Shown one piece after another: positions 31,751 through 64,000 of a stretch of 64,000 bases of DNA. How positions within the stretch are numbered: position 1 is the stretch's first letter; the number at the start of each line of letters is the position of its first letter. Position numbers and translations under genes: made by a program. This DNA is from Phyllobates terribilis (taxonomy: Eukaryota): positions 753,486,001-753,550,000 of the forward strand of contig NW_027362761.1 in NCBI RefSeq assembly GCF_046119375.1, in the 5' to 3' direction. Under the pieces are notes generated by a model that saw nothing but the letters and a program-made list of their open reading frames with translations, had not been told where the DNA came from and did not search any database.

Positions 31751-33684
31751 TGTGTCTAAATACTTTTTCTGTGGGCAGGGGAATATACCTTGAAGCTTGT
31801 TTCTCTCTGATCCTTTGAGACACTTGTATCACCCCTGTAAGCTTTAGGGTAAGTGCACACTGTTCGTTTTTGATGCGTTTTTTGCCGCTCGGAAATGCAT
31901 CAAAAACGTTATGCAATCCGTCTGCCAGCTAATGCAATGACAATCAGGATGTGCTGTGCACATAATGCAAAAATTTCCTCTCAGGATTCTCATTGCGTTT
32001 AAATATGCAGCATGTCCATTGTATGTAGTGTTTCTGCAGCATTTCCCGCCCATTGACTTTAATTGAACCGCAGGTATAAATATATTTGCTGCGGTTGTTT
32101 GCTGCGTATTTGACTAGTCAATGGGTCAAATATGCTGCAAAAATGCACAAAGAGTGGTACCCGGGTCGGCTGGGCATGACTACTCCCATCATCCGACCGC
32201 CGCTCCGGCTGATAACAGTGAGAGCAGCGCGGCTGAGGGAAACTGTAGTCTCCTCAGCCGAATTGAAGCGAGTGCGTGGCGAGTGTAAAAAAAAAAAAAC
32301 AAACAAAACACCTATGCTCACCTGTTCGGCGTCCCCCTGATGTACCCTGGCGTCCTGATCGGCCGGCGGTACTCTGCCGGGAGCGCGCTCGCTCCCGGCA
32401 ATGTACATCGCTGCTGCCGGCTGTGGTCACGCGAGTTCACAGCTGGGGATCAGCTGATGAGCTCGGGACCTCGCTTTACGCTGGTGCTGCGTGGGAACAT
32501 TCGTGAGAATGTTCCCACATACCACTGATGCTGAGATCATCGGGGCTGATCAGCTGATCTTCAGGTAATGAAATCAAGTGACCTCACTCCTGCAGCAGCG
32601 ATGTACACTGACAAAAGTGATTACACTCCTGTCAGTGTACAGTGCTGTCTGCTACAGCAGTCCCATCAGTGATTGATGTGGCTGCTGTAAAAGTGACCCA
32701 GATCGCCGAGGGAACAATCTAGATAGGTTGTGACGGCGGACAGTTGAGGGATATGGGTTTTTTTTTGTTGTTGTTGCTTTTTTTTACAGAAGATCGAGGG
32801 ATTCGGGGACTGGGCGTGCAATAAAAAAATTAAAACAAACATAAAAAAAAAAAAAATTTCAATAAAATACTTTATTCTGGCGGTGTCTTTATTGAAAAAG
32901 CGTTGATACCCTTTACTATGGGGGTTAGTAATGGGGGCGTCTTTTAGACGCCGTCCATTACTAACCTGAGCTTCACGTCAGCCACTAATACAAGGCTGAC
33001 ATGAACCCCAACCCCATTACCCCACTCGCCACCGCTACAGGGCAGTGGGAAGAGCGGAGGCTAAGCGCCAAATTTGGCGCATCTTATGGATGCGCCATTT
33101 CTGGGACTGCTGAGGAAGTGATATTAGCCGCGGAGGGGGCTAGTATCCATGGTTCCTTCCCTGGCTATTAATATCAGCCCACAGCTGTCTGTTTAGCCTT
33201 TTCTGGTTAGATTTTATAGTGGGACCCTACGTCAATTTATTTCTGGGGACCCCCTGTAATCTAGCCAGTAACGGCTAAGCAAACATCTGTGGGCTGTTAT
33301 TAATAGCCTGGGAACATGTTTGGCTAATGGCCCCTTCCCTGGCTACTAATATCAGCTCCGAGAGGTCGGCTTTCCCTCTGCTGGTTATAAAAATGACGTG
33401 GGAGCCCACGCCGGTTTTTTATTTTTTAGGCTATGTGCCCATGATCCGGACGTAGAAGCGCTTTGAACACTGCATATGTTTGCTGCTTCCAAAACGCTGC
33501 GTTGAACGCAGGTAAATCAGCATGTGTTAACTGAACCTTGCGGATTTACCGCATTTAGTACATTCTAGTGGTCAAATTTCTGTTGCGGAGACTAGCGACT
33601 CTGCAAGAGAATTTGACATGCTGCATTCCTGAAAGAAGTTCAGCATGTCAGTGTCTGCGGGTGATCCGCAGCCTCAGATGCATG

Positions 33685-34886
33685 TGACGCGCCCCCTGGG
33701 CCAGTGTTGTTTGGGGGATACCCGGAGCCGGATCAGATGGGGGTTGTAGTCTCCGAGTGGCGGTGACCCGGTCCGTGCCCAGGGTGTCAAGCTCAGTGTG
33801 TGGCAGTCCTACAGATGTTACTAGATGTTCTTTTATGTCGACTACGCCACCCGTTGAATTGCGGTCAATACGGCCGCCGCTGCAGCAGGGTCCACTGAGG
33901 CTGGTGATGTGTGTGCAGCTCAGATAGTATAACCCCCAACGGGAGGGGTATAGCCTCAGGGGGTCAGGTGTAGAGGATGGTGGTTGTGGAGGTGCAGGGA
34001 GGATGGTAATGAGACTCAGAGTCGGGCTGTGCAGTTCAGGGTCTTTACTTACTGCTGTTGTTCTGGTCACTCCGGCCTTGAGTGACCGCCCGAGCCGTGC
34101 TGCGTCCACCAGGTCCTGGACTCGGCCAACTCCCAAGTAATTCTGGAGCGTGATCCTGAGCTCCCTTTCTGACGTTCCTTCTCTCTGGCCTTCCCCACCA
34201 GGGATCCACCTAAGTCCGGCTCCCTCGGGCCTCTTGTTGGTAAACCCTTGTCTCTGGGTTCCCTGACCCTATTCCTGGTCTGCCTTCCGGGTGGATTTAG
34301 TGGGTGGTCGTGGCAGATCCTGCCCACGACCTCCGGTCTCTGGCTGAGGATTAGTGCCCTCCACCAGCTTGGGATCCGGTACCCTTGTGCCAACTCTTCA
34401 CCCGCTGATCTAATCCTGGGTTCTTGGAGTTCTCTCTTCTCCCCCTCTGGGTCCTTCTTTCTCCTCTCTCTCTCTGGGCCTTGGAGCTGCTCTTCTCCTC
34501 TGCTCTCTTCCTCTGACTGACTGACCGCTACAAAAGACCCTGATCTAAGATGGTTCCCACCTTATATACTCCCTCTATGTGTGAGCTCAGGTGACCAGCA
34601 CCCAATGAGCTCCTAGCATTACCCAGACTGCTCCCCCTATCTGCCCCTACACTACTGGGATGTTCCACCCCCCCCCCACTCCACTCCAGCCAAGGACAGA
34701 CACTGTCGTACCTGCACATTTCTCTAGTGGGAGTACCATTGGTCTGTCCCCCGGAAATGGGATGTGTGTAGTGCATGCAGCCTACTGAGCTCAGTTCCAC
34801 ACTCCATCCTTACCCGGGAGTGGAATACCACACCTCTGGCTTGAGGTGTAATACCCCTGTAGCAGCCGAATCCTCAGGGTGCTACA
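33685..34886 (-). repeat. 3' LTR (1202 bp)
   Basis: Direct repeat of 37299-38495; preceded on the minus strand by the PPT. Confidence 0.95.
34044..34049 (-). terminator. Putative variant poly(A) signal AGTAAA in the 3' LTR
   Basis: Minus strand AAGTAAAGACCCTG; the related LTR has AAGTAAAACCCTG at about 52422. Confidence 0.45.
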
Positions 34887-34895
34887 TTCCCCCCT
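34887..34895 (-). other. Polypurine tract
   Basis: Minus strand AGGGGGGAA immediately before TGTAGC of the 3' LTR. Confidence 0.85.
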
Positions 34896-35320
34896 GGTAA
34901 ATCACAGCACGTCCTCGGGCTGTAAGATACAAAAACATCCAAAACATACAATTATTTTTCATAAATATAAACATATAAAACATCATATATATCATCAGCA
35001 TAAACTTTTCCATATAAAACTTTCCATAAATAACATTCTTGTAAACACTCTTGCTCCTCCGGCCACGGTGCAACTTGTGACCGGGAAAAGCGCGACAGTC
35101 TCTTAAAGAAAATGGTTTCCTATAAAACCGGTAGGGGGCGCCTTAGGAAGCGCAACTATATACAAGGGAAGGTATGGCCGCTCTCAGTCCTCGGCCAGGT
35201 AATGGGAATAGGGACACACGGGTTAACAGTTCACTCTTGTCCCAACGGGGACATATTTAAATCAGCAACAGTTCTTGGTACCCCGACGGGCAACTTTATA
35301 CAGTCTCTCTCTACCGTACT

Positions 35321-37117
35321 TCAACGACGGCGTCCTCCTGCTCTTTCTTGTTGGTTGGTTTCAGTTTCAGACCCATCCGGGTCCTCTTGCTCCTCCTCAC
35401 ACCGCAGCTCCTCCTCCGTCAGGCGATGCACATGGAGGGCGTAGGGTCCTTTGGCACACTTGTGCCGGGTGAACGTGACCTCGTCCCCTACGTACAGGTC
35501 ACGACCTCTGTGTCCCTCCGGCAGATGGCTTTCTACGTCTCTGCGGGTTACAAAGACGTCGCCGGGGGTATGATGGTCTCTTATGAAGCCCCACCCATGC
35601 TGCAGGTTGAATTTAATCACAGTCCCGGTGGAAGGGGGACCATGAGCTGCACGGGGATTCCTCCTGGTCCGGCTCTTCTGCTCCGCGCTTCTTATCTGCA
35701 TCTGCTGTTCCCGGACCCGCCTCTCTCTCCGCTCCCTCTCGAAGACCTCGAGCTGCTGGCGGCAGCACTCTGCACGCTCCGCTGCGGCCGCCCGAGTCTC
35801 CTGAGTGAACCCCATGAGGTCTTCTCCAGTGGGGTCCCACTCAAACTGTGCCTCCTCCAGCGGGGGCGAGGTCCTCTTTACAGGCTTCGGAGCCGGAATC
35901 AGGGGCTCGCACATGGGCCTTGCTCTCTGGAGTTCCAGCTGAATGTACTCCTGGGGCCATACAAAGGGCTGCCCATCCGGGCACGTATGCTGGGCGAATA
36001 GATTTTCACCCAGGTGCGGCACTCGAGATGTTGAGGGCGCGTTGATGGTAGCGGCGCCCGGGTTGACCAGGCCTTGCGACCAGGCTTGGGGCACCCTAAA
36101 GGCAAAGGGCACCCTAAGAACGGCGGCGCCCTGGGTTACTCGGCCCTGCGACCAGGCCGGTGGCTCCGCGGAGGTAGGGGGCGCTGTTGGAATAGCGGCG
36201 CCCGGGGGTACTAGGCCTTGCGACCAGGCTGATGGTATTTCCTGCTTGGCCACGCTCGAGGTCGAGGCGTGTGACGTCACAGGGGTCGCGGCCGCGGTTT
36301 CCGGTTGAGGCCTAGTCAGCGGCGGTGACGATGCAGCGACGGGCACGGCAGGGGGAACTTCGGGCTCTGCGACGGGGAGCTGGGGCAGGCACGCGGTTTC
36401 CCGGCTCGGGGTAGAGACGTCCCCTTTACCTGCCTCCATTCGTTCAGCTCCCTTCTCGGCGCCGTCTCCGGCCTTCAGTCCTCCTGCACCATCCTCAGAG
36501 GCGGTCTGTCTCCTCGTCTCGGGTGGCGTGCTCCGCTGACGGGTTTCGGTCTGCTGGGCCATCTCTCGGCTCCACTCCGCCAACGTCTCTCGCTGCACCC
36601 GGGCCATCCTCCGTGCGAGGCCCTCCAGCGCAGTCTGTGCACACTCCCGCTCTCGGGGGAGCTGTGCCAGGACCTCCACTAGGCCTAGTGGAGTTGTGGC
36701 TTGTAGCAGGCTCCTGACCACTGGGTCGGTGCTGCCTGACTCTCCCTCCATCTCCGGGTAGGCTTTCTCTGGACTCCTCTCCAGACTTCTTGTCTCCGGG
36801 TGCGCTCTCTCCAGACTGCTCCAGGCGACACCCATCTTCGTTCTTTTCTTCAGTCTCCGCCCACATTGAGGGTGGTCCCGGGGCAACTTAGTGATTGTCA
36901 GTTCCAGGGGCAGTTCTCTCACGCTGATGGACACTTCCAGCATCACAGTCTCTGTTGGTGGGCGCGGTTTCCGCTTTTGGCGCCATTCTTCGACCTGGCC
37001 CACGATGGGAGGTGACCTCTTGCCACCCTCTGGCACGCCCATAATGGCGTCCGCTCTTCCAAGGCGGGAAATCTTTGGAAATGGCGGGAATCGTCTCCCA
37101 GTGGCGGGAAACTCCAT
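35321..37117 (-). CDS. LTR-element protein of about 598 aa: low-complexity/coiled-coil N-terminal region, three 24-aa repeats, C-terminal cold-shock (CSD/OB-fold) domain and acidic tail
   Basis: Uninterrupted ORF; first ATG after the PBS at 37117. CSD at 35420-35632: GTVIKFNLQHGWGFI (RNP1-like)...GDVFVT (RNP2-like)...LYVGDEVTF...KGPYALHV, which aligns with Y-box/Lin28/CspA domains. Confidence 0.85.
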   Translation of the reverse strand: MEFPATGRRFPPFPKISRLGRADAIMGVPEGGKRSPPIVGQVEEWRQKRKPRPPTETVMLEVSISVRELPLELTITKLPRDHPQCGRRLKKRTKMGVAWSSLERAHPETRSLERSPEKAYPEMEGESGSTDPVVRSLLQATTPLGLVEVLAQLPRERECAQTALEGLARRMARVQRETLAEWSREMAQQTETRQRSTPPETRRQTASEDGAGGLKAGDGAEKGAERMEAGKGDVSTPSRETACLPQLPVAEPEVPPAVPVAASSPPLTRPQPETAAATPVTSHASTSSVAKQEIPSAWSQGLVPPGAAIPTAPPTSAEPPAWSQGRVTQGAAVLRVPFAFRVPQAWSQGLVNPGAATINAPSTSRVPHLGENLFAQHTCPDGQPFVWPQEYIQLELQRARPMCEPLIPAPKPVKRTSPPLEEAQFEWDPTGEDLMGFTQETRAAAAERAECCRQQLEVFERERRERRVREQQMQIRSAEQKSRTRRNPRAAHGPPSTGTVIKFNLQHGWGFIRDHHTPGDVFVTRRDVESHLPEGHRGRDLYVGDEVTFTRHKCAKGPYALHVHRLTEEELRCEEEQEDPDGSETETNQQERAGGRRR

Positions 37118-37275
37118 GGATGGCGGGAAAAAGCTGCAAATGGCGGACAACCGGCGGGAAACGACCTGTGATGGGGCCCGATGGCGGGGACCCTCCGGAA
37201 CCGGCGGGAGACTTCTTTTTAAGGTAACGGTGTACTTTTCTTCAGGCACGCAGTACCCGGTTGTTGCGGGCACGT

Positions 37276-37294
37276 AATCCTGCCGACTACGCCA
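37276..37294 (-). other. Primer-binding site complementary to the tRNA-Ser 3' end
   Basis: Plus strand AATCCTGCCGACTACGCCA equals the last 19 nt (including CCA) of vertebrate tRNA-Ser(AGA-type); 4 nt from the 5' LTR end. Confidence 0.92.
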
Positions 37295-37298
37295 AAGT

Positions 37299-38495
37299 TG
37301 ACGCGCCCCCTGGGCCAGTGTTGTTTGGGGGATACCCGGAGCCGGATCAGATGGGGGTTGTAGTCTCCGAGTGACGGTGACCCGGTCCGTGCCCAGGGTG
37401 TCAAGCTCAGTGTGTGGCAGTCCTACAGATGTTACTAGATGTTCTTTTATGTCGACTACGCCACCCGTTGAATTGCGGTCAATACGGCCGCCGCTGCAGC
37501 AGGGTCCACTGAGGCTGGTGATGTGTGTGCAGCTCAGATAGTATAACCCCCAACGGGAGGGGTATAGCCTCAGGGGGTCAGGTGTAGAGGATGGTGGTTG
37601 TGGAGGTGCAGGGAGGATGGTAATGAGACTCAGAGTCGGGCTGTGCAGTTCAGGGTCTTTACTTACTGCTGTTGTTCTGGTCACTCCGGCCTTGAGTGAC
37701 CGCCCGAGCCGTGCTGCGTCCACCAGGTCCTGGACTCGGCCAACTCCCAAGTAATTCTGGAGCGTGATCCTGAGCTCCCTTTCTGACGTTCCTTCTCTCT
37801 GGCCTTCCCCACCAGGGATCCACCTAAGTCCGGCTCCCTCGGGCCTCTTGTTGGTAAACCCTTGTCTCTGGGTTCCCTGACCCTATTCCTGGTCTGCCTT
37901 CCGGGTGGATTTAGTGGGTGGTCGTGGCAGATCCTGCCCACGACCTCCGGTCTCTGGCTGAGGATTAGTGCCCTCCACCAGCTTGGGATCCGGTACCCTT
38001 GTGCCAACTCTTCACCCGCTGATCTAATCCTGGGTTCTTGGAGTTCTCTCTTCTCCCCCTCTGGGTCCTTCTTTCTCCTCTCTCTCTCTGGGCCTTGGAG
38101 CTGCTCTTCTCCTCTGCTCTCTTCCTCTGACTGACTGACCTCTACAAAAGACCCTGATCTAAGATGGTTCCCACCTTATATACTCCCTCTATGTGTGAGC
38201 TCAGGTGACCAGCACCCAATGAGCTCCTAGCATTACCCAGACTGCTCCCCCTATCTGCCCCTACACTACTGGGATGTTCCACCCCCCTCCCACTCCAGCC
38301 AAGGACAGACACTGTCGTACCTGCACATTTCTCTAGTGGGAGTACCATTGGTCTGTCCCCCGGAAATGGGATGTGTGTAGTGCATGCAGCCTACTGAGCT
38401 CAGTTCCACACTCCATCCTTACCCGGGAGTGGAATACCACACCTCTGGCTTGAGGTGTAATACCCCTGTAGCAACCGAATCCTCAGGGTGCTACA
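37299..38495 (-). repeat. 5' LTR (1197 bp)
   Basis: Minus strand TGTAGCACCCTGAGG...GGCCCAGGGGGCGCGTCA; by eye differs from the 3' LTR by only about 3 substitutions and one 5-bp indel. Confidence 0.95.
38176..38182 (-). promoter_or_regulatory. Putative LTR TATA box
   Basis: Minus strand TATATAA in the 5' LTR; the related LTR has GATATAAAA at about 51838. Confidence 0.5.
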
Positions 38496-39206
38496 CATGC
38501 ATAGTGGACATGGGATTTCTAGAAATCCCATCCACTATGCTGTAACATCTGGACGCTGCGGGTTTGACTCTGCATAAATACACAGCTTCAAACCTGCAGC
38601 ACCTCCTGACCGAGGCCACGTACCCAAACTCACCCGCAGCATGTCAATTTCTGTAGCATAGACGCCAGTCTCCGCTGCAGATTTTGACCGATTGAGGTGT
38701 AATTATATGCGGTGGATCCACAAGTATTAACAACAAAAGTGCGGAATTAGAACACAGCGTTTTGGACGCAGCAAAACTACGCTGCGTCCAAAGCGCTGCT
38801 GAGTGCTGATCAGGGGGGGGGGGCGTAGTGGCTAACGAAACAGCTGTGAGCTGTTATTACTAGCCAGGGAAAATGTTTGCCTATAGGCACCTTCCTAGGC
38901 TAAAAATAGCAGCTCTCAGCTGCCCCAGAAATTACATGAATTGAAATGCTAATGAAGATTGAGTTTAGCTGACACCTAGCCCTTTTGTTTAGTGATGACA
39001 AGGCGTCAATCAGACCCTTTCATTACTACACCTAATTAAAGTAAAAAGTTAAATAAACACACAAACACAGAGTAAACACTTTATTTGTAGTACAACAGAT
39101 GCATTCTTTAATCATTTCAATTAACCAATATACTCACCCCAGGTCTGACTGTAATCCAAGGGTCAAAGCAATGTCTCATGGTTCTTTTTTCAAATAACTT
39201 TATTTA

Positions 39207-52681: not shown

Positions 52682-54330
52682 ACCACATCAGTCACAAGCT
52701 GGAAGCACTGCCTCGGCCAAGCGGCAACAGGCTGTGCTGAAGCTAATATGCTTAAGTGACAAACCACACAATGCTGAAGAGTTGTGGACAGCTCTGAAAG
52801 AGCAGGATGTCTGTGGCTCACACCGCTGAACCTACAGCCAGGCATGATCGTGTGTGACAATGGCCAGAACCTGGTGGCGACTCTGAGGCGAGACGAGCTC
52901 ACACACGTACCATGCCTGGCCCATGTGCTTAACCTTGTGGTTCAGCGGTTTCTCAAATCCTACCCGGAGCTGCCGGATCTGCTTGTTAAAGTACGCCGCC
53001 TGTGTGCCCATTTTAGAAAGTCAGCTACAGCTTCCGCCGCCCTTGCAGTGTTTCAGCAGCGTTTGCAGCTTCCGGCTCACAGACTGGTGTGTGATGTCCC
53101 CACGCATTGGAACTCTACACTGCAGATGTTGGAAAGGATTTGTGAGCAGAAGAGGGCAGTTGTTGAGTACCAGCATCAACAAGGCCGTCGGTATTCAGTT
53201 CAGACTCCACACATAAGACCTCAGAAGTGGACATGGATGTCAGACATATTTACCATCCTCCAAAAGCGGCGATAATGCCATAATTAGCGTCACCATCCCG
53301 TTTCTCTGTCTTCTGAAATTCTCTCTGCTCACAATCAAAGAGGATGCATTGCAGGCGGAGCACGATTAGATGGAGCAAGGAACCATGCAGGGTGATTACA
53401 CACAGCCAAGCCTCATCTCATCCCAACGTGGATTGGGTGACAATGAGGAAGAGGAGGAGGAGGAGGAAGGACAGGAGCTAGTTTCATGCACTATAGACGG
53501 TACTACCTGCACAGCTGTCATACCGTCTGTTCAGCGTGGATGGCCAGAGGACAGAGAGGAGGAGGAGGAGAGCATGGTCAGTCATCCTCTTGGTGAGGAC
53601 ACGGAAGTAAGTCTTGCCTGTTAGTAGTCTGGCACGCATGGCTGAGTTTATGGTACGCTGCCTTTCCCATGACCCTCCCGTTCTCAAAATTTTGGGTGAC
53701 AGTGATTACTGGTTGGTGACACTTCTAGACCCACGCTATAAGGAGAACTTTATATCTCTTATTCCTGAGGCGGACAGGTCTACAAAAATTGGGCAGTACC
53801 AGAAGGCCCTTGTTGCGGAACTATTAAAAAAATTCCCATCTGAAAATGCTGGCGGCAGAGGGCAAACTTCGTTGGACAACCAAGGAGTACAGGCGAGAGA
53901 GACACAACTTCAATCCAGCAGAGGCAGGGGAACACTGTCAAAATTCTGGGAGAGTTTTCTCAGACCCTCCTATCGCACAGGCCCTGAGGCGCGGGGTACT
54001 CTCACAAGGAGTGCAAAGTTTGGGAAGATGCTGAGGGAGTACATTGTCAACCGTACCAACGTCCTCCGTGATTCCGCTGTGCCTTATAATTATTGGGTAT
54101 CCAAGCTGGATGCGTGGAATGAACTGGCTCTCTATGCCTTGGAGGTCCTGGCCTGCTCTGCCACCAGTGTTTTATCAGAGCGGGTTTTTAGTGCCGCTGG
54201 GGGAATTATAACTGAAAAGCACATCCGCCTGTCAACTGAAAATGCTGACAGGCTGACTCTTATAAAAATGAACAAGGGCTGGATTGGGCCAGACTCCTCA
54301 ACACCACCGAATGATAGCAGCGTAACATAA
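52682..54330 (+). pseudogene. hAT transposase copy A (C-terminal two-thirds, degenerate)
   Basis: GMIVCDNG, HVPCLAHVLNL (CxxH), CDVPTHWNST, LLDPRYK, SVLSERVFSAAG hAT dimerisation domain. Confidence 0.9.
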
Positions 54331-54559
54331 ACTCAAATCCAGTGTCTTTTCTTGGGAGGTGTATTCCCATGCACCTTTTCACACCCACACATGGGTTTAC
54401 GCTTCCTGATTTTGGCTATTTGCTCTTGTCCTCCTCCTTCTCCTCATTCTCCACCACCATATCACCAGGGTCACCGTGGTCCATGAAGCAACACCCACAT
54501 AATTTTTTTAAAGGGTGTTTATGATGCCTGTAAAAATTTTTATTATACAGTATGTTCAT

Positions 54560-55590: not shown

Positions 55591-56276
55591 CTTCACACTG
55601 TACAAATACCCGTCTTATTAACCTTTTGGTGTCCCCCCCCCCCCAAAAAAAAAAAAAAAAAAAAGTGTGCCTGTGACAGTTCAGACGCAAATATATCTGT
55701 TGAAAATAGTCTGGTGTAGGCCAGAGAAACAGAAGTGTGGTTTTGCAGTTCCACGGTTCAAACCTCTGTATTATCCACTTTTGGGCCATTTGTATCTAAA
55801 AAAAAAAACAGTTTGAGTGTGTCGCTCACTGTTCAGCCGCAAATATATATATTTAAAAAAGTCTGGTATACACCAGTAAATTATAACTGTGGTTTTGCTG
55901 TTCCACGGTAAAACATCTCTATTATCCTGCTTTTGCCATTTTTTGCCGTAAAAAAAAAACTGTAATAGTGTCTCTCTGATTGTTCAGACACAAATATATC
56001 TGTTGAAAATAGTCTGGTGTAGGCCCGAGAAATAAAACTGTGGTTTTGCAGTTCCACAGGTCAAATCTCTGTATTATATCCTGCTTTTGCCATTTTTTGC
56101 CATAAAGAAAAACAGTAATAATGTCTCCTGATTGTTCAGACACCAATATATTGGAGCTGAAAAGCTGTTGGAGCTGAAAAGAGGACATCGGTAAACCGCG
56201 CGCCTGCCGGCGCGCGCATTTTGAAGCTTTTTTTTTAAGCTTTTTTCACTGTTTTCAGAACATTAACAATAAGAAC

Positions 56277-57239
56277 ATGGAAGAGTCCAGGAGCCATTTG
56301 GTGAACTGCATATCCTGCTACATGTTCACAGACTTGCCAGTGGAAAAGCCAAACTTCACATGCCAGAAATGCAAGCTTGTGTCCCTGTTGGAGGAAAAGT
56401 TGCGAAATCTAGAAGAGAAGTTAACTACCTTGAAAATCATTAAGGAAGGTGAAGAGTTCTTAGACAGAGCAGAATTATCTCTTCATGATTCAGAAAGAGA
56501 AGAAATTCGAACTGCACCTGAGGAAACAGAGGAATGGAAGCATGTGACCCACAGAAGCAGGAGGATCGAGAGGCAGTCAGCACCCATACTGCTCAGGAAC
56601 CAGTACCAGGCTCTCACGCAGGAGAACCATGAAGAAATACAGCAAAATAAGACTTTGCCAGCAATGAATAACCTTGTAAGCCCTCAGAATCCTCCTGGAT
56701 GGAGAAAGAAGAATGTTGTGAAGAAAAAACGGAGAGTGGTGGTCATGGGGGATTCCCTGTTAAGAGGAACAGAGGCCGCTATCTGCAGACCAGACATAAC
56801 CTCAAGAGAAATGTGCTGTCTTCCAGGAGCAAAAATTAAAGATGTGTCTGACAGGATATCAAGACTCTTCAGACCTACAGATCACTACCCATTCCTGCTA
56901 ATACATGTGGGGACAAATGACACCGCAAGAAAGGACCTGGAAACCATCTGCAGTGACTTTGAAGACTTAGGCAAGAAAGTGAAAGAATTGGGAGCGCAGG
57001 TGGTCTTCTCATCCATCCTCCCAGTGGATGGCCATGGAACAATGAGGTGGAATAAGATTCTACAGGTGAACAACTGGCTACGTCGATGGTGCCGTCAACA
57101 AGGATTTGGATTTCTGGATCACGGAATGAATTACCTATACGATGGACTACTTGCTAGAGATGGGGTGCACCTTACGAAGACTGGAAAACATGTATTTGGA
57201 AGTCGCCTTGCTACACTCATCAGAAGAGCTTTAAACTAG
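56277..57239 (+). CDS. CR1 ORF1 (320 aa): zinc-finger-like, coiled coil, SGNH esterase-like domain
   Basis: CISC...CQKC; VVMGDSLLRG, HVGTNDT, DGVHLT; intact ATG to TAG. Confidence 0.9.
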   Translation: MEESRSHLVNCISCYMFTDLPVEKPNFTCQKCKLVSLLEEKLRNLEEKLTTLKIIKEGEEFLDRAELSLHDSEREEIRTAPEETEEWKHVTHRSRRIERQSAPILLRNQYQALTQENHEEIQQNKTLPAMNNLVSPQNPPGWRKKNVVKKKRRVVVMGDSLLRGTEAAICRPDITSREMCCLPGAKIKDVSDRISRLFRPTDHYPFLLIHVGTNDTARKDLETICSDFEDLGKKVKELGAQVVFSSILPVDGHGTMRWNKILQVNNWLRRWCRQQGFGFLDHGMNYLYDGLLARDGVHLTKTGKHVFGSRLATLIRRALN

Positions 57240-57361
57240 AACAATGTGGGAAGGGAAGCAAAAGGCCAGAAAAAGCCATACAGCTGACAAATACTATTGA
57301 GATCTCTGCTACTGGAAGTGGAAAGGAAGAACAAAGACAAAACAATTTAAATAATAAAAAT

Positions 57362-60064
57362 ATGGGAGGAAGAGAAACCAATCACAAACTAAAATGTTTT
57401 TATACAAATGCACAAAGCATGGGCAACAAACAAGGAGAATTGGAACTACTAATGCAGGAAAAGGAATATGATGTCATTGGAATCACTGAAACTTGGTGGG
57501 ACGATGCACATGATTGGAATAAAAGGCTAAAAGGATACAACTTATTTGCAAGAAACAGACTTGATAAACGAGGAGGAGGTGTTGCATTGTATGTTAGAAA
57601 TGCGTATATCTGCACAGAGATTGAAGCTTCAGAGACTGGGAGTTCTGTGGAAACTGTTTGGGTAAGAATACAAGGAGAGAACAACGGAAAGGACACCATT
57701 GTAGGCATTTACTACAGGCCACCTGGGCAAGCTGAAGATATGGATGAACTCTTTATGTATCAAATGACCAAGTTCTCCAAAAAATATGACGTAGTGGTCA
57801 TGGGAGATTTCAACTATCCAGACATTTGTTGGGAATCTCTCTCAAGTAAAACTAACAGGTCAAGCAATTTCTTATCCTCTCTTGCTGACAACTTTATCTT
57901 CCAAAAGGTAGGGGAGAAAACAAGGGGATCTGCTACTTTGGATCTAATCCTTATAAACAGGGAGGAAATGGTTGAGGAGGTAAAGGTGGCTGGGACCCTA
58001 GGAGGCAGCGATCATGCTATTATAGAATTTTGGATAACTAGAGGAGGAAGACATGTGAAGACTCAAACTTCAAGGTTAGATTTTAGAAAGGCAGATTTTA
58101 AGAGACTCAGAAAGAGAATAGGAGGGATCCAATGGCTGGATGTCCTTAAGGACAAAAATGTCCAGGAAGGATGGGAAATTTTTAAAAATGAGATTCTCAA
58201 AGCACAATTGTTAACAATCCCGAAAAGTAGGAAGAATGGGAAGCATTTAAGGAAACCAGGATGGATGAACACAGAACTTAAACACATGCTAAAAAGAAAG
58301 AAAGAAATGTTTATTAAATGGAAAGAGGGAGGCATATCTAAAGAAGATTATAATGCAGTCTGCAGATCCTGTAGGGCACGTATCAGGTTAGCTAAAGCTG
58401 ACAATGAATTAAGGCTTGCAAGAGATGTCAAAAGCAATAAAAAAGGATTTTGGGGGTATGTCAAAAGTAAAAGAAAAGTCAAAGATGCTATAGGATTTTT
58501 ACAGGATGAAAATGGAGAAATGGTAAGAGAGGATGTTGAGAAGGCCAAACTTTTTAATTCCTATTTTGCATCTGTTTTCTCTCAGAAACAAAATGTAACA
58601 TCAACTGATCTTCACTGTCCTTTTAAAGGAATAGAGGAATCCAAGTTATCTGTAAACAGAAAGAATGTGAGGGAATATTTAGCTAACATAAATGAGTTCA
58701 AGTCTCCAGGTCCAGATGAATTACACCCCAGAGTACTGAAGGAGATCGTAGAAGAAATTTTAGAACCACTCTCCATAATCTTTGAAAATTCTTGGAGAAC
58801 AGGAGAAGTCCCAGAAGACTGGAGAAGAGCAAATGTTGTTCCTATCTTCAAAAAGGGGAAGAAGGTGGACCCAGGGAACTATAGGCCGGTGAGTCTGACT
58901 TCTATACCAGGAAAGATCTTTGAACAAATTATTAAACAACATGTATGTAAGTACATGGATAAGAATGAAGTGATTAACCAGAGTCAGCATGGGTTTGTAA
59001 CTAACAAGTCATGTCAGACTAACTTAATTTCCTTCTATGACAGAATCACTGACTGGGTGGATCAGGGAAATGCTGTAGATATAGTATATCTTGACTTCAG
59101 CAAAGCATTTGACAAAGTATCTCACACCATCCTTATTGAAAAAATGACCAAGTATGCAATGGACCAGGCAACTGTTAGGTGGATTCATAACTGGCTTAGT
59201 GATCGGACTCAAAGGGTGGTTGTAAATGGCTTCACATCCAGCTGGATGAATGTCTCAAGTGGGGTACCACAGGGCTCCGTCCTGGGACCTGTATTGTTCA
59301 ACATCTTTATCAATGATTTAGATGAAGGAATTGAGGGTAAACTGATTAAATTTGCTGATGACACAAAGCTAGGAGGGATAGCTAATACTAGAGAAGAGAG
59401 AGAGAGGATTCAAAAAGACCTAAATAAACTGGAGCAGTGGGCAGCAACCAACAGAATGGTTTTTAACAGGGAAAAATGCAAAGTACTACATCTGGGCAAT
59501 AAAAATGAAAAAAGCATATACAGAATGGGAGGAATAGAGCTAAGCAACAGTACATGTGAAAAAGACTTAGGTATACTAATAGATCATAGACTGAACATGA
59601 GTCAACAGTGTGATGCAGCAGCAAAAAAGGCAAATACAATTCTGGGATGCATTAACAGAAACATACAGTCTAGATCACGTGAAGTCATTATCGGTCTTTA
59701 CTCCTCTTTGGTCAGACCTCATCTGGAATACTGTGTACAGTTTTGGGCACCACATTTTAAAAAAGACATAGACAAACTGGAGCAAGTTCAGAGAAGAGCG
59801 ACCAGAATGGTGACTGGTCTGCAAACCATGTCCTATGAGGAACGGTTGCAGGATTTGGGAATGTTTAGCTTGCAAAAAAGAAGACTGAGAGGAGACTTAA
59901 TAGCTGTCTACAAATATGTCAAGGGCTGTCACATTGTAGAAGGATCATCTTTATTCTCATTTGCACAAGGAAAGACTAGAAGAAATGGGATGAAACTAAA
60001 TGGGAGTAGACACAGATTAGATATTAGAAAAAACTTTTTGACAGTTAGGGTGATTAATGAGTAG
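57362..60064 (+). CDS. CR1 ORF2 APE-RT (900 aa); a TGG>TAG change removes the last 29 aa
   Basis: YTNAQS, TETW, YYRPP, GDFNYP, GSDH; YRPVSLTS, LDFSKAFD, GVPQGSVLGP, FADD; read-through gives WNRLPREVVSSPSMDVFKQRLDRHLSEMI* ending at 60151. Confidence 0.93.
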   Translation: MGGRETNHKLKCFYTNAQSMGNKQGELELLMQEKEYDVIGITETWWDDAHDWNKRLKGYNLFARNRLDKRGGGVALYVRNAYICTEIEASETGSSVETVWVRIQGENNGKDTIVGIYYRPPGQAEDMDELFMYQMTKFSKKYDVVVMGDFNYPDICWESLSSKTNRSSNFLSSLADNFIFQKVGEKTRGSATLDLILINREEMVEEVKVAGTLGGSDHAIIEFWITRGGRHVKTQTSRLDFRKADFKRLRKRIGGIQWLDVLKDKNVQEGWEIFKNEILKAQLLTIPKSRKNGKHLRKPGWMNTELKHMLKRKKEMFIKWKEGGISKEDYNAVCRSCRARIRLAKADNELRLARDVKSNKKGFWGYVKSKRKVKDAIGFLQDENGEMVREDVEKAKLFNSYFASVFSQKQNVTSTDLHCPFKGIEESKLSVNRKNVREYLANINEFKSPGPDELHPRVLKEIVEEILEPLSIIFENSWRTGEVPEDWRRANVVPIFKKGKKVDPGNYRPVSLTSIPGKIFEQIIKQHVCKYMDKNEVINQSQHGFVTNKSCQTNLISFYDRITDWVDQGNAVDIVYLDFSKAFDKVSHTILIEKMTKYAMDQATVRWIHNWLSDRTQRVVVNGFTSSWMNVSSGVPQGSVLGPVLFNIFINDLDEGIEGKLIKFADDTKLGGIANTREERERIQKDLNKLEQWAATNRMVFNREKCKVLHLGNKNEKSIYRMGGIELSNSTCEKDLGILIDHRLNMSQQCDAAAKKANTILGCINRNIQSRSREVIIGLYSSLVRPHLEYCVQFWAPHFKKDIDKLEQVQRRATRMVTGLQTMSYEERLQDLGMFSLQKRRLRGDLIAVYKYVKGCHIVEGSSLFSFAQGKTRRNGMKLNGSRHRLDIRKNFLTVRVINE

Positions 60065-60503: not shown

Positions 60504-63500
60504 ATGGGCAAGGCGCGTGGCCAGGGACGTGGAACTGGACGTTCTGGTGATGGTGCCTGCAGAGGATGGGGCCGTGGCCAAGGTGAAAATGTGCCACAAC
60601 CAACAGCCACATCTTCTCGCTCCCACTTCTTGACTGAATAACTAGGGAAGCACAGAACAACACCAGTATTGCGAACTGATCAGTGTGAACAGGTTATTAA
60701 TTGGATAGCAGATAATACTTCCAGTTACCTGGGCACCACCACCTCCGGTCTGACTTCCACACGGTCAAATCTTAGTAGACGTGAGTCTCGACCGCATACT
60801 CCTCCTCACCCTGATGCTCCTTCCTCCCACCATGCCAAGTGTCGTCAGACAGCAACTGATCCCACATTTGGACACTCTGAAGAACTGTTCACAGGTCCAT
60901 TTCCAGATTTGTGCCCCTCGCCTGCTCCACTTGAAGTGGTGGAAGAGGAGATCCCATGTAGCGATGCCCAAATATTTGAACAGCCATGGCCACAGGAAGT
61001 CGACGCTGGCAATTTGTCACAAGAGGTGGACGATGACGAGACACAATTGCCAGGAAGTGAGGAGGAGGATCGTGGTGCGCAAGTGGAAAAGGAGGAGGTG
61101 ATGGATGATCTAGTAACTGACCCCACGTGGCAGGAGGACATGCAGAGCGAGGCCAGCGGCACACAGGGTGAGAGAGGCAGAGTACCCCAACAGGCAGGAA
61201 GAAGCAGTGTGGTGGCCGCACACAGAAGGCGGACAACAGTTCCCCGTAACACCAACACGAGGAACGTTGCCAGTTCAACCTGTAGCTCTTCCAGAGTCTG
61301 GAATTTTTTTAAAGACTCTGCTGATAACACCAAAAAGGCCATTTGTACCACCTGCCACGCCAGCATCAGCAGGGGTGACAAAACTACCAGCCTGACCACC
61401 ACCAGCATGATCAGGCACATAGCAGCAAAGCACCCGACTTTGTGGGGCGAACCCCAGGGTCCACGACCAGTCTCAGCGGGTGTCACCACTGCTTCTTCCG
61501 CTGTTGTGCGTGCAATAGAACCCCCTGTTGTGTGTGCAAGGCAATCCCATTTCCATACTGCATGCAAAGATGCCCCCTCCTCTCAGTCTTCACTTGTTAT
61601 GGCAGTTTCTCAAGAAACAGCATCAATGTCCACGTCCACGTCTCACCGCTGCGTTCAATTGTCCATATCCCAGACCGTTGAACGAAAGCGGAAATTCGCA
61701 GCTAACGCCCCACAGGCCACAGTCCTAAATTCACACAATTTCACGACTGCTTGCGTTGGAAATGCTGCCTTTTAGGCTGGTGGAGACGGAATCCTTCCCC
61801 AACCGTATGGCAGTGGCGGTCCCTCGGTACTCGGTCCCCAGCCGACACTATTTTGCCCTGTGTGCCATCCCCGCACTACACAAGCACTTGTCCCAAAACA
61901 TCTGCCGTGCCCTCAACAACACAGTTACTGGGAGAGTCCACCTGACAACGGACACGTGGACAAGTGCTTGTGGCCAGTGACTGTACATCTCCCTGACGGC
62001 ACACTGGGTAAACATAGTGGAAGCCGGGATCCAGTCGGACCTTGGGACGGAACACATCCTCCCCACACCGAGGATTGCGGGCCCTATGTCAGTCAGAGTT
62101 GCCCCCACAGTGTACAGCTCCTGCGCATCATCCTTCTCCTACTCCTCATGTTCAGCCTCCATCTCAGATATCACCACATCAGTTACAAGCTGGAAGCACT
62201 GCAGTACTGCCTCCGCCAACCGGCAACAGGCTTTGCTGAAAATCATAAGCTTAGGTGAGAAACCTCACACTGCTTGTGAGTTGTGGACAACTGTGAAAGA
62301 GCAGGCAGATCTGTGGCTGACACCGCTGAACCTACGTCCAGGCATGGTCGTGTGTGACAATGGCCGTAACCTTGTGGCGGCTCTTAAGCGAGGCGAGATC
62401 ACACACGTACCATGCCTGGCTCATGTGCTTAACCTCGTGGTTCAGCGGTTTTTTAAATCGTACCCCGAGTTGCCAGATCTGCTCGTCAAAGTACGCCGCC
62501 TGTCAGCTCATTTTCGCAAGTGGGCTACAGCTTCCGCCGCCCTTGCTGTGTTGCAGCAGCGTTTGCAGCTTCCCGCACACCGACTGGTGTGTGATGTCCC
62601 CACACGTTGGAACTCTACCCTCCACATGTTGCAAAGGATTTGTGAGCAGAAGAGAGCAGTTGTTGGAGTACCAGCTGCAACAAGGCCGTCGATATTCAGG
62701 TCAGACTCCACACTTAAGACCTCAGGAGTAAACCTGAATGTCTGACATATGTACCATCTTGACAAACTTTGAGGAGTCCACCAAGATGGTGAGTGGCGAT
62801 GACGCCATCATTAGCGTCAGCATTCCACTTGTCTGTCTTTTGCAACGCTCTCTGCAGAGAATTAAAGAGGAGGCATTGCAGCCAGAGTATGATGAGATGG
62901 ATCAAGAAGCCATAGCGGTCGATTACACACAGCCCAGCCTCATCTCATGCCGACGTGCATTGAGGGACAATGAGGGAGAAGAGGAGGAGTAGGAGGAGGA
63001 AGAACAGGAGCTTGTATCATGCGCTGTAGACGGTAGTACCTGTACAACTGTCATACCGTCGGTTCAGCGTGGGTGGCCTGAGGACAGGGGGGAGGAGAAG
63101 GAGGAGAGCATGGTCTCAGTCGTCATCTTGGTGAGGACACGGAAGTCTTGCCCGTTACCAGTCTGGCACGCATGGCTGACTTTATGTTACGCTGCCTTAA
63201 CCGTGACCCTCGCATTGTCAAAATGTTGGGTGACAGTCATTACTGGTTGGTGACACTTTTAGACCCCCACTACAAGGAGAACTTTCACTCACTTATTCCT
63301 GAGGTGGAGAGGTCTACAAAAATGGGGCAGTACCAGAAGGCCCTTGCTGCAGAACTGTTAAAAAAATTCCCATCTGAACACGCTAGCGGCAGAGGTCACA
63401 GTTCGTTGCCCAACCAAGGCGTACATGCGAGAGAGACGCAACTCCAATCCAGCAGAGGCAGGGGAACACTGTCAACGTTCTGGGACAGTTTTCTCAGACC

Positions 63501-63864
63501 CTCCCATCGGACAGACCCTGAGGCGCGGGGTACTCTCACAAGGAGTGGAAAGTTTCAAAAGATGGTGAGGGAGTATCTTGCCAACCGTACCAGCGTCCTC
63601 CGTGATTCCTCTGTGCCTTTTAATTATTGGGTATCCAAGCTGGACACTTGGAATGAACTCGCTCTGTATGCATTGGAGGTCCTGGCCTGCCCTGCCGCTA
63701 GCGTGTTATCGGAGCGTGTTTTTAGTGCCGCTGGGGGAATTATAACTGATAAGCGCACTCGCCTGTCAACTGACAATGCTGACAAGCTGACCCTTATCAA
63801 GATGAACAAGGGCTGGATTGGGCCAGACTTCTCATCACCACCAAATGACAGCAGAGTAACATAA
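60504..63864 (+). pseudogene. hAT transposase copy B (full length, BED finger + DDE + dimerisation domain; several stops/frameshifts)
   Basis: BED finger VWNFF...AICTTC...MIRHIAAKHP; HLTTDTW, VCDNG, CLAH, PTRWNST, SERVFSAAG; in-frame TAA at 60639 and frameshifts at about 61740, 61980, 62670 and 63120. Confidence 0.92.
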
Positions 63865-64000
63865 AGTCAAATCCACTGTGTTATTTCGGTAGGTGTATTC
63901 ACATGCACCGTTTCACACCCACACATGGGTATATGCTTCCTCATTTTGGCTATTTTATGTTCTTCTCCTTATCCTCAGCCTCCACCACCACTATACCACC

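Follow-up and report, generated by a model that had tools for sequence, protein, structure and literature searches.

A pol-less LTR retrotransposon family carrying a cold-shock-domain gene in the poison frog Phyllobates terribilis

The element and its place in the window

The stretch of DNA analysed here (the window) comprises 64,000 nucleotides of the Phyllobates terribilis genome (RefSeq assembly GCF_046119375.1, contig NW_027362761.1, positions 753,486,001 to 753,550,000 of the forward strand), and positions 33685-38495 on its minus strand hold a 4,811-bp retrotransposon bounded by long terminal repeats (LTRs) and encoding a protein with a cold-shock domain (CSD). The element is an LTR retrotransposon of the non-autonomous kind: it has LTRs, a target-site duplication (TSD), a primer-binding site (PBS) and a polypurine tract (PPT), and it belongs to a family of recent, dispersed copies that lack pol. 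A preliminary description, made from the letters of the window, had proposed a recently mobile non-autonomous LTR element spreading a CSD gene, and that proposal held: there are many intact copies, and the ratio of nonsynonymous to synonymous substitution rates (dN/dS) among them is far below 1. The CSD is under strong protein-level purifying selection.

The features on which the preliminary description relied, namely near-identical LTRs, a CATG TSD, a 19-nt tRNA-Ser PBS and a PPT, were all recovered on the minus strand (Table 1). The two LTRs differ by 4 substitutions and one 5-nt insertion or deletion (indel), and the 5' LTR contains a TATA-like TATATAA at 38182 and, at 37663, AGTAAA, a variant of the poly(A) signal. 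The complement of the PBS covers the 3' end and CCA of tRNA-Ser(AGA/TGA) genes of the same genome; ARAGORN predicted a tRNA-Ser in three of four fetched PBS-matching loci, and in none of four from an earlier first set of pattern loci. The insertion lies inside a short inverted-repeat element with flanks that are 71% complementary, and the empty form of this host repeat was found in public contigs, where the joints skip ~4,816 bases. The element is also spanned by four public contig sets whose type is uncertain.

The interior is 2,412 bp long, and its sole Pfam match is to CSD family PF00313 (33.8 bits against a cut-off of 27, E 3e-8). Gag, protease, reverse transcriptase, integrase and CCHC families were absent in Pfam searches extended to E 1, as the preliminary description had stated. 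A stop-free frame runs from 37882 to 35321 and measures 598 aa from its first ATG (37117). An antisense frame of 246 codons at 35261-36001 was rejected as a gene, as it reaches at least 200 codons in only 5 of 38 copies.

Table 1. Features of the element, in window positions
Feature	Positions	Strand	Remarks
5' LTR	37299..38495	-	1,197 bp, TG...CA ends
3' LTR	33685..34886	-	1,202 bp
TSD CATG, left copy	33681..33684	.	
TSD CATG, right copy	38496..38499	.	
PBS	37276..37294	-	19 nt, complementary to tRNA-Ser(AGA/TGA) 3' end
PPT AGGGGGGAA	34887..34895	-	short, abuts 3' LTR
Leader	36836..37275	-	stop-free in this copy; Met1 37117, Met26 37042, Met59 36943
Selected frame	35321..36835	-	Met95 (504 aa) or Met123 at 36751 (476 aa) to stop
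N-terminal helical segment	36551..36727	-	heptad-like pattern; pN/pS 0.28; no family match
Pro/Ala-rich linker	36023..36550	-	predicted disordered; in-frame repeat indels; pN/pS 0.57
W..G.DLMGF motif, then ~45-residue Arg/Glu-rich helix into CSD	35633..35845	-	conserved; pN/pS 0.17
CSD	35420..35632	-	five-stranded barrel; pN/pS 0.11

A large, young family with a selected reading frame

The exact PPT-LTR junction of the element occurs 26,615 times in the 10.6-Gb genome, against 0 for the control, a count that is a lower bound since it covers one junction variant, and in which tandem units are counted separately. The family would amount to ~128 Mb if every junction-bearing copy were full length, or about 1% of the genome. 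A query of the genome with the CSD returned 37,334 first-look candidates, and all 150 that were scored were 99-100% identical. Close copies had two full LTRs in 19 of 20 cases and a 4-bp TSD in 17 of 19. At the first 30 junctions along contig 1, the open reading frame (ORF) was matched at every one, a CSD-spanning hit was present at 26, and the pol probe matched none. Among the first 40 junctions, taken without selection, 36 had a 5' LTR match within the DNA taken for each, 27 had a CSD frame open for at least 500 codons, and the two-LTR copies had a median LTR divergence of 0.30%, with matching TSDs in 31/36. Older subfamilies keep the same layout down to ~40% protein identity, some of them with a second PBS.

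Selection was assessed by dN/dS in 52 natural frames that were picked for being unbroken, by the ratio of nonsynonymous (N) to synonymous (S) differences per site (pN/pS) in 22 disjoint pairs, and by indels in 38 interiors not chosen for their ORF. In the pairs the CSD showed 45 N and 137 S differences, giving a pN/pS of 0.11 (0.07-0.16), and the control upstream of Met1 gave 0.97 (0.78-1.36). In the 52 frames, pooled dN/dS for the CSD stayed at 0.09-0.12 whatever the distance class; the helix preceding it gave 0.10-0.21 and the N-terminal segment 0.20-0.30, and values upstream of Met1 were ~1.0 in three distance classes and 0.66 in the most distant. Because dS in the CSD rises to 1.1 with low dN, the pattern is not one of conservation at the RNA level. 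CSD variants that are shared comprised 30 N and 95 S, and singletons 45 N and 30 S. Decay of the ORF, with dN/dS near 1, was not what these copies showed.

Of the shared indels between Met95 and the stop, 26 keep the frame and 2 shift it; upstream of Met95 the figures are 4 and 8, and in the 3' untranslated region (UTR) 12 and 58. Start codons were present at Met1 in 13 of the 52 frames, at Met26 in 47, at Met95 in 46 and at Met123 in 49, the deepest subfamilies included. Translation probably begins at Met95 (36835) or Met123 (36751) rather than at Met1, and the leader, which tolerates shared frameshifts, is probably mostly untranslated, although a start at Met26 is still possible because residues Met1-94 have a pN/pS of 0.77. 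The preliminary description had given an ORF of ~598 aa; selection and indels point instead to a protein of 504 or 476 aa.

These patterns bear on the idea of a DNA-binding protein that switches on the element's LTR, or of a frame kept mainly since its translation stabilises the RNA. Y-box proteins are named for binding an inverted CCAAT box, a CCAAT-type box is present in 40 of 40 LTRs (a 5-mer, and hence weak support), and the dominance of in-frame indels would be consistent with a requirement for translation. Translation alone, however, cannot yield a CSD pN/pS of 0.11 with dS above 1, and a transcription factor acts in trans, where selection on each copy is not expected, so that we regard both versions as very unlikely.

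Several relatives of the element were seen. A distinct CSD-LTR family (L303/L076, C1:961.878-961.883 Mb) has 1.36-kb LTRs that are 96.9% identical, and its PBS is longer, following the tRNA-Ser complement over ~50 nt. Further CSD-LTR families (L054, L064, L066) carry a different PBS, TGGCGTCACGAACAGGAT, which implies a second helper and which we take to be complementary to another tRNA-Ser isoacceptor. L051, L052, L071 and many matches to the CSD query form tandem arrays that share LTRs (LTR-interior-LTR-interior-LTR) at a spacing of ~3.6 kb. Three adjacent old Bufo-like CSD copies (L291, L292, L301; C4:791.48-791.52 Mb), with no flanking LTR pair within 9-10 kb, keep the RNP2 histidine, and they are either what is left of some older family or a gene that has been domesticated.

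Outside P. terribilis, related CSDs were found in proteins of Ranitomeya variabilis, R. imitator, Anomaloglossus baeobatrachus and Bufo bufo, known there from proteins alone, and the Bufo bufo proteins are annotated as 'Y-box-binding protein 2-A-like'. None of the named hits came from Xenopus, ranids or fish, a weak negative, since repeats are often masked before annotation. Two annotated toad/frog proteases (P0053, P0054) have the element CSD fused N-terminally; these fusions are likely gene-model artefacts, or possibly cases of exon capture.

The cold-shock domain and its source

The assignment to PF00313, proposed in the preliminary description, stood up to both profile search and structure prediction: the Pfam score exceeds the family cut-off, and the model is a five-stranded barrel. 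The structure was modelled from an alignment (a single-sequence fold was poor, with a predicted local distance difference test score, pLDDT, of 56, and was set aside), and the CSD folds confidently at a pLDDT of ~90. The barrel matches the structures of CspA (E 1e-6) and YB-1 (5e-6), and no capsid fold appeared among the listed structure matches for the protein. Nor was a Gag family detected by Pfam in 26 family members, and a profile comparison of the element protein with the Gag of the likely helper described below gave a probability of 0.1%. Besides the barrel, the model has a helix at the N-terminus, a long disordered linker and a 45-residue helix; from its heptad-like pattern the N-terminal segment may be a coiled coil.

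RNA binding by YB-1 relies on the stacking residues Trp65, Phe74, Phe85 and His87, and loss of any one of them disrupts it (PMC7226217). Equivalents of Phe74 and Phe85 were kept in all 52 frames, and in all 52 Trp65 was replaced by Lys or Arg and His87 by Thr or Asn. At the position of Glu121, which we take to follow YB-1 numbering, 50 of the 52 frames have Tyr, and the Lys118 equivalent is kept as Lys or Arg; the copy in the window has Lys for Trp65, Thr for His87 and Tyr for Glu121. The RNP1/RNP2-like motifs of the preliminary description thus hold in part, with the CSD found where it had been placed but the RNP2 histidine lost. Remodelling of the CSD surface, after which it was held constant, suggests a change of specificity and not decay.

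The source of the domain was sought by several routes, and the earlier label 'Y-box-like' came out as likely on profile evidence but not on every comparison. With two family profiles the top PDB entries were YBX1/YBX2 (56-60 bits), followed by CspA (44-47), Lin28 (26) and CSDE1 (24). A single-protein comparison ranked bacterial Csp first, and an 88-column tree, which put 16 element CSDs together (76/80), did not join them to its only Y-box-like row; that grouping was rejected (p 0.031), the row being a degraded copy on a long branch. Host CSDE1 was discarded as a source, given its weak profile scores and its separate clade in the tree. A phage origin found no tblastn match, and an Atlas search returned bacterial CSD leads alone, all under 0.9. 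CSDs fused to gag-pol were absent from 8 hits up to 2,000 aa (a weak negative; 7,999 candidates scored) and from 30 helper 3' ends.

Y-box proteins have a near-invariant CSD followed by a long charged C-terminal domain. The element protein departs from this architecture, as its CSD is only 31-32% identical to that of YB-1, stands at the C-terminal end behind helices and a long linker, and is followed by a tail of 32 residues in place of the Y-box C-terminal domain; what it has in common with YBX1 and YBX2 is a single CSD with a long beta3-beta4 loop (PMC7226217).

Other CSD genes in the genome were noted in these searches. A single-copy, degraded, intronless Y-box-like CSD at L062 (C11:349412850-349413053) is likely a processed pseudogene. 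An intronless, interrupted and partly duplicated copy of a multi-CSD gene (L013-L018, C1:734.43-734.45 Mb) has an exon-split parent at L019-L020 (C2:702.79-702.81 Mb), and this gene is presumably CSDE1/UNR.

A likely helper and the spread of the element

The search for a helper started from integrase-bearing loci and led to the Gypsy elements L175 and L180, which have a PNMA-like Gag with a CCHC knuckle and the order protease, reverse transcriptase, RNase H, integrase; the PNMA match (E 4e-5, 23.5 bits) falls under the cut-off of 25. This Gypsy and the element share the last ~365 bp of the LTR (likely U5) and the PBS at ~72% identity, ~60 nt around the PPT at 76%, and a short patch of the 3' UTR. 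The PBS sequence and its 4-nt spacer are identical in the two, and the shared part of the LTR begins at the element's poly(A) signal; the U3/R region and the interior of the element are unrelated to those of the helper. The helper PPT junction occurs 5,912 times, with pol upstream at 25 of the first 30 junctions and the CSD ORF at none. From these similarities it seems likely that a related PNMA-Gag Gypsy family, rarer and older than the element, copies it.

The helper may belong with the Barthez-like Ty3/Gypsy elements: PNMA genes are listed as Barthez-derived (PMC3670739), and the ~1-kb LTRs and ~1,320-aa pol of the helper are near the sizes listed for Barthez1/2 (PMC3670739; PMC11117352), a label that follows from the Gag family and the sizes. 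The element differs from such a Gypsy in having no gag or pol, and has the PBS, U5, PPT and 4-bp TSD in common with the helper. Also found on the minus strand at 37050-37170, just downstream of the PBS, were repeated TTTCCCGCC motifs that recur at the like place in the leader of L175. They could possibly be a packaging signal or E2F-like sites.

The favoured reading, to which we give somewhat better than even odds, is that the copy in the window is a young member of a huge non-autonomous family copied by helper Gag/Pol, and that its protein uses the CSD to bind, in cis, the RNA from which it was made. The lineage would have arisen from the helper lineage when gag-pol was replaced by a captured CSD gene. 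RNA transcribed from the 5' LTR would be translated, and the protein, once made, would attach to its own message by means of the CSD and the adjacent Arg-rich helix, perhaps self-associating through the N-terminal helix. Coated in this way, the RNA would be shielded or reshaped and would outdo helper RNA in gaining entry to the helper's Gag particles, after which helper reverse transcriptase would use tRNA-Ser as primer and the 4-bp duplication would come from helper integrase. A copy without the ORF could still be inserted but would give rise to few others. The fuller scenario, in which a satellite of hyloid frogs captured a host CSD as a cis RNA adaptor, wins packaging in helper Gypsy particles and as a hyperparasite outnumbers its helper several-fold, is possible but rather doubtful.

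A different role for the protein would be that of a nucleocapsid-like chaperone inside the particle, annealing tRNA-Ser and speeding strand transfer for the long LTRs, which is quite unlikely. The predicted CSD fold would suit such a role, a review's reference list has titles on YB-1 as a strand-annealing protein and on CspA as an RNA chaperone, and a chaperone would be compatible with selection in cis. The suggestion in the preliminary description that the protein replaces nucleocapsid is weakened, however, because helper Gag keeps its own intact CCHC knuckle; moreover the protein is without Gag similarity and has no evident route into a capsid except on RNA, and its stacking residues are partly lost.

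An element that relies wholly on complementation for its copying can do without a functional gene (PMC8297934), and a selected ORF in an element of this kind therefore implies an advantage for the very copy it stands in. Copies from which the CSD has been deleted bear directly on this point. In fetched deleted copies the CSD was missing from 18 of 18, two LTRs were present in 17, and 16 of these 17 pairs were less than 0.5% apart. At the first deletion junction there is a short direct repeat; copies with this junction turn up in several subfamilies and are not confined to one lineage, so the deletion is recurrent, likely by template switching during reverse transcription. The closest pair among deleted copies is at least 1.75% apart, and full-length copies are separated by as much from the copies closest to them (median 2.4%).

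The existence of such CSD-less copies, young and in the hundreds, would also fit a protein that acts in trans, as a counter-defence against small-RNA silencing or by displacing host Y-box proteins in oocytes, to the help of all LTR elements. YB-1 is a major messenger ribonucleoprotein component, in Xenopus oocytes too (PMC7226217), and it supports replication of the human immunodeficiency virus (PMC6040738). But a good held in common by copies in the tens of thousands is expected to decay, which is not what the 30 N and 95 S shared CSD variants and the 2 frameshifts among 28 shared indels show, and the two deletion junctions counted come to only ~3% of the full junction count. Competition with host Y-box proteins in trans, raised in the preliminary description, is weakened by this pattern of selection, and we consider action in trans unlikely.

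Several observations weigh against binding in cis with copying by this helper. Only unbroken frames were chosen for the dN/dS analysis, and since two of the four stacking residues are replaced in them, RNA binding may be weak or altered. The two deletion junctions have 749 and 132 matches (up to 1 mismatch), and the deleted copies are young, mostly with TSDs; of 21 such copies, only 9 had a full-length copy as their nearest neighbour, and one 9-member clade consists of deleted copies alone, with both junction types. On the helper side, 15 loci were fetched that had been picked for pol and LTR similarity; both LTRs were present in 12, with 4-bp TSDs in 12 of 12 and a median LTR divergence of 1.5%, so the sample is older than the elements, and only 3 of the 12 have a pol frame of at least 1,200 codons. 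Given this age, the few long pol frames and an LTR similarity of ~72% over ~365 bp, the helper subfamily that truly serves the element today may lie outside the sample.

Other mobile elements were considered as helpers or noted. Gmr1-like elements were set aside for their other PBS and ends; among these, L107-L110 are very young Gypsy copies with a SCAN-like Gag, integrase before reverse transcriptase, an ORF of ~1,680 aa, LTRs that are 99.8-100% identical and many intact copies. Endogenous retroviruses were likewise rejected on their ends; L173, L174, L177 and L178 have gag, pol and env-like frames, the LTRs of L174 are identical, and the class-III-like L178 has the same tRNA-Ser PBS as the CSD element with other LTR ends. 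Elsewhere in the window, two 1.8-kb repeats at 52682-54459 and 62173-63990, 85% identical, each contain a transposase-like frame, and between them lies an insertion resembling a long interspersed nuclear element (LINE) with ORFs at 56178-60061, all labelled from translations.

LTR elements without pol and with a single ORF are already known, and the ORFs of 1A11 and TR-GAG are Gag-like. In frogs they include Xenopus 1A11 and Xretpos (PMC4585706); the 1A11 protein is Gag-like, ORF copies number 15-30, and Xretpos is said to prime on tRNA-Arg, compared with tRNA-Ser, more than 26,000 copies, a CSD and a likely helper here, a separation drawn from the published descriptions. A CSD is nowhere mentioned in that paper. 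The plant TR-GAG elements are likewise short, non-autonomous, apparently still mobile and endowed with one ORF, which encodes Gag (PMC4350172); the ORF described here has no Gag similarity detectable by Pfam, profile comparison or fold search. No CSD in an LTR element was found in the literature searched, with supplements, subscription papers, Repbase and Dfam outside its scope, and the two CSD mentions that were found are unrelated. Term searches for cold shock were also negative in a frog LTR survey (PMC4131045), a review of captured transposable-element genes (PMC6431247), a paper on non-autonomous LTR groups (PMC10886601) and a poison-frog genome paper (PMC12208295).

There is a possible analogy in the proposed mechanism to LINE-1 ORF1p, with a coiled-coil-like segment and an RNA-binding domain that would act in cis on its own RNA. 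ORF1p combines a coiled coil with an RNA recognition motif and acts in cis on its own RNA; no homology was found, and here the domain is a CSD in a helper-dependent LTR element.

Non-autonomous elements normally shed coding sequence, and this family keeps a non-viral protein under selection of core-gene strength across subfamilies that are ~40% alike, offering a natural test of why a cargo gene is kept. An element that is younger and more numerous than its likely helper is also a natural test of RNA competition for another element's particles. Much of the repeat DNA in the poison-frog genome has been reported as unclassified (PMC12208295), and this family puts a name to a sizeable unannotated share of a giant genome. 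By their similarity to the family, the toad and poison-frog entries labelled 'Y-box-binding protein 2-A-like' or 'uncharacterized' are likely to be transposon proteins.

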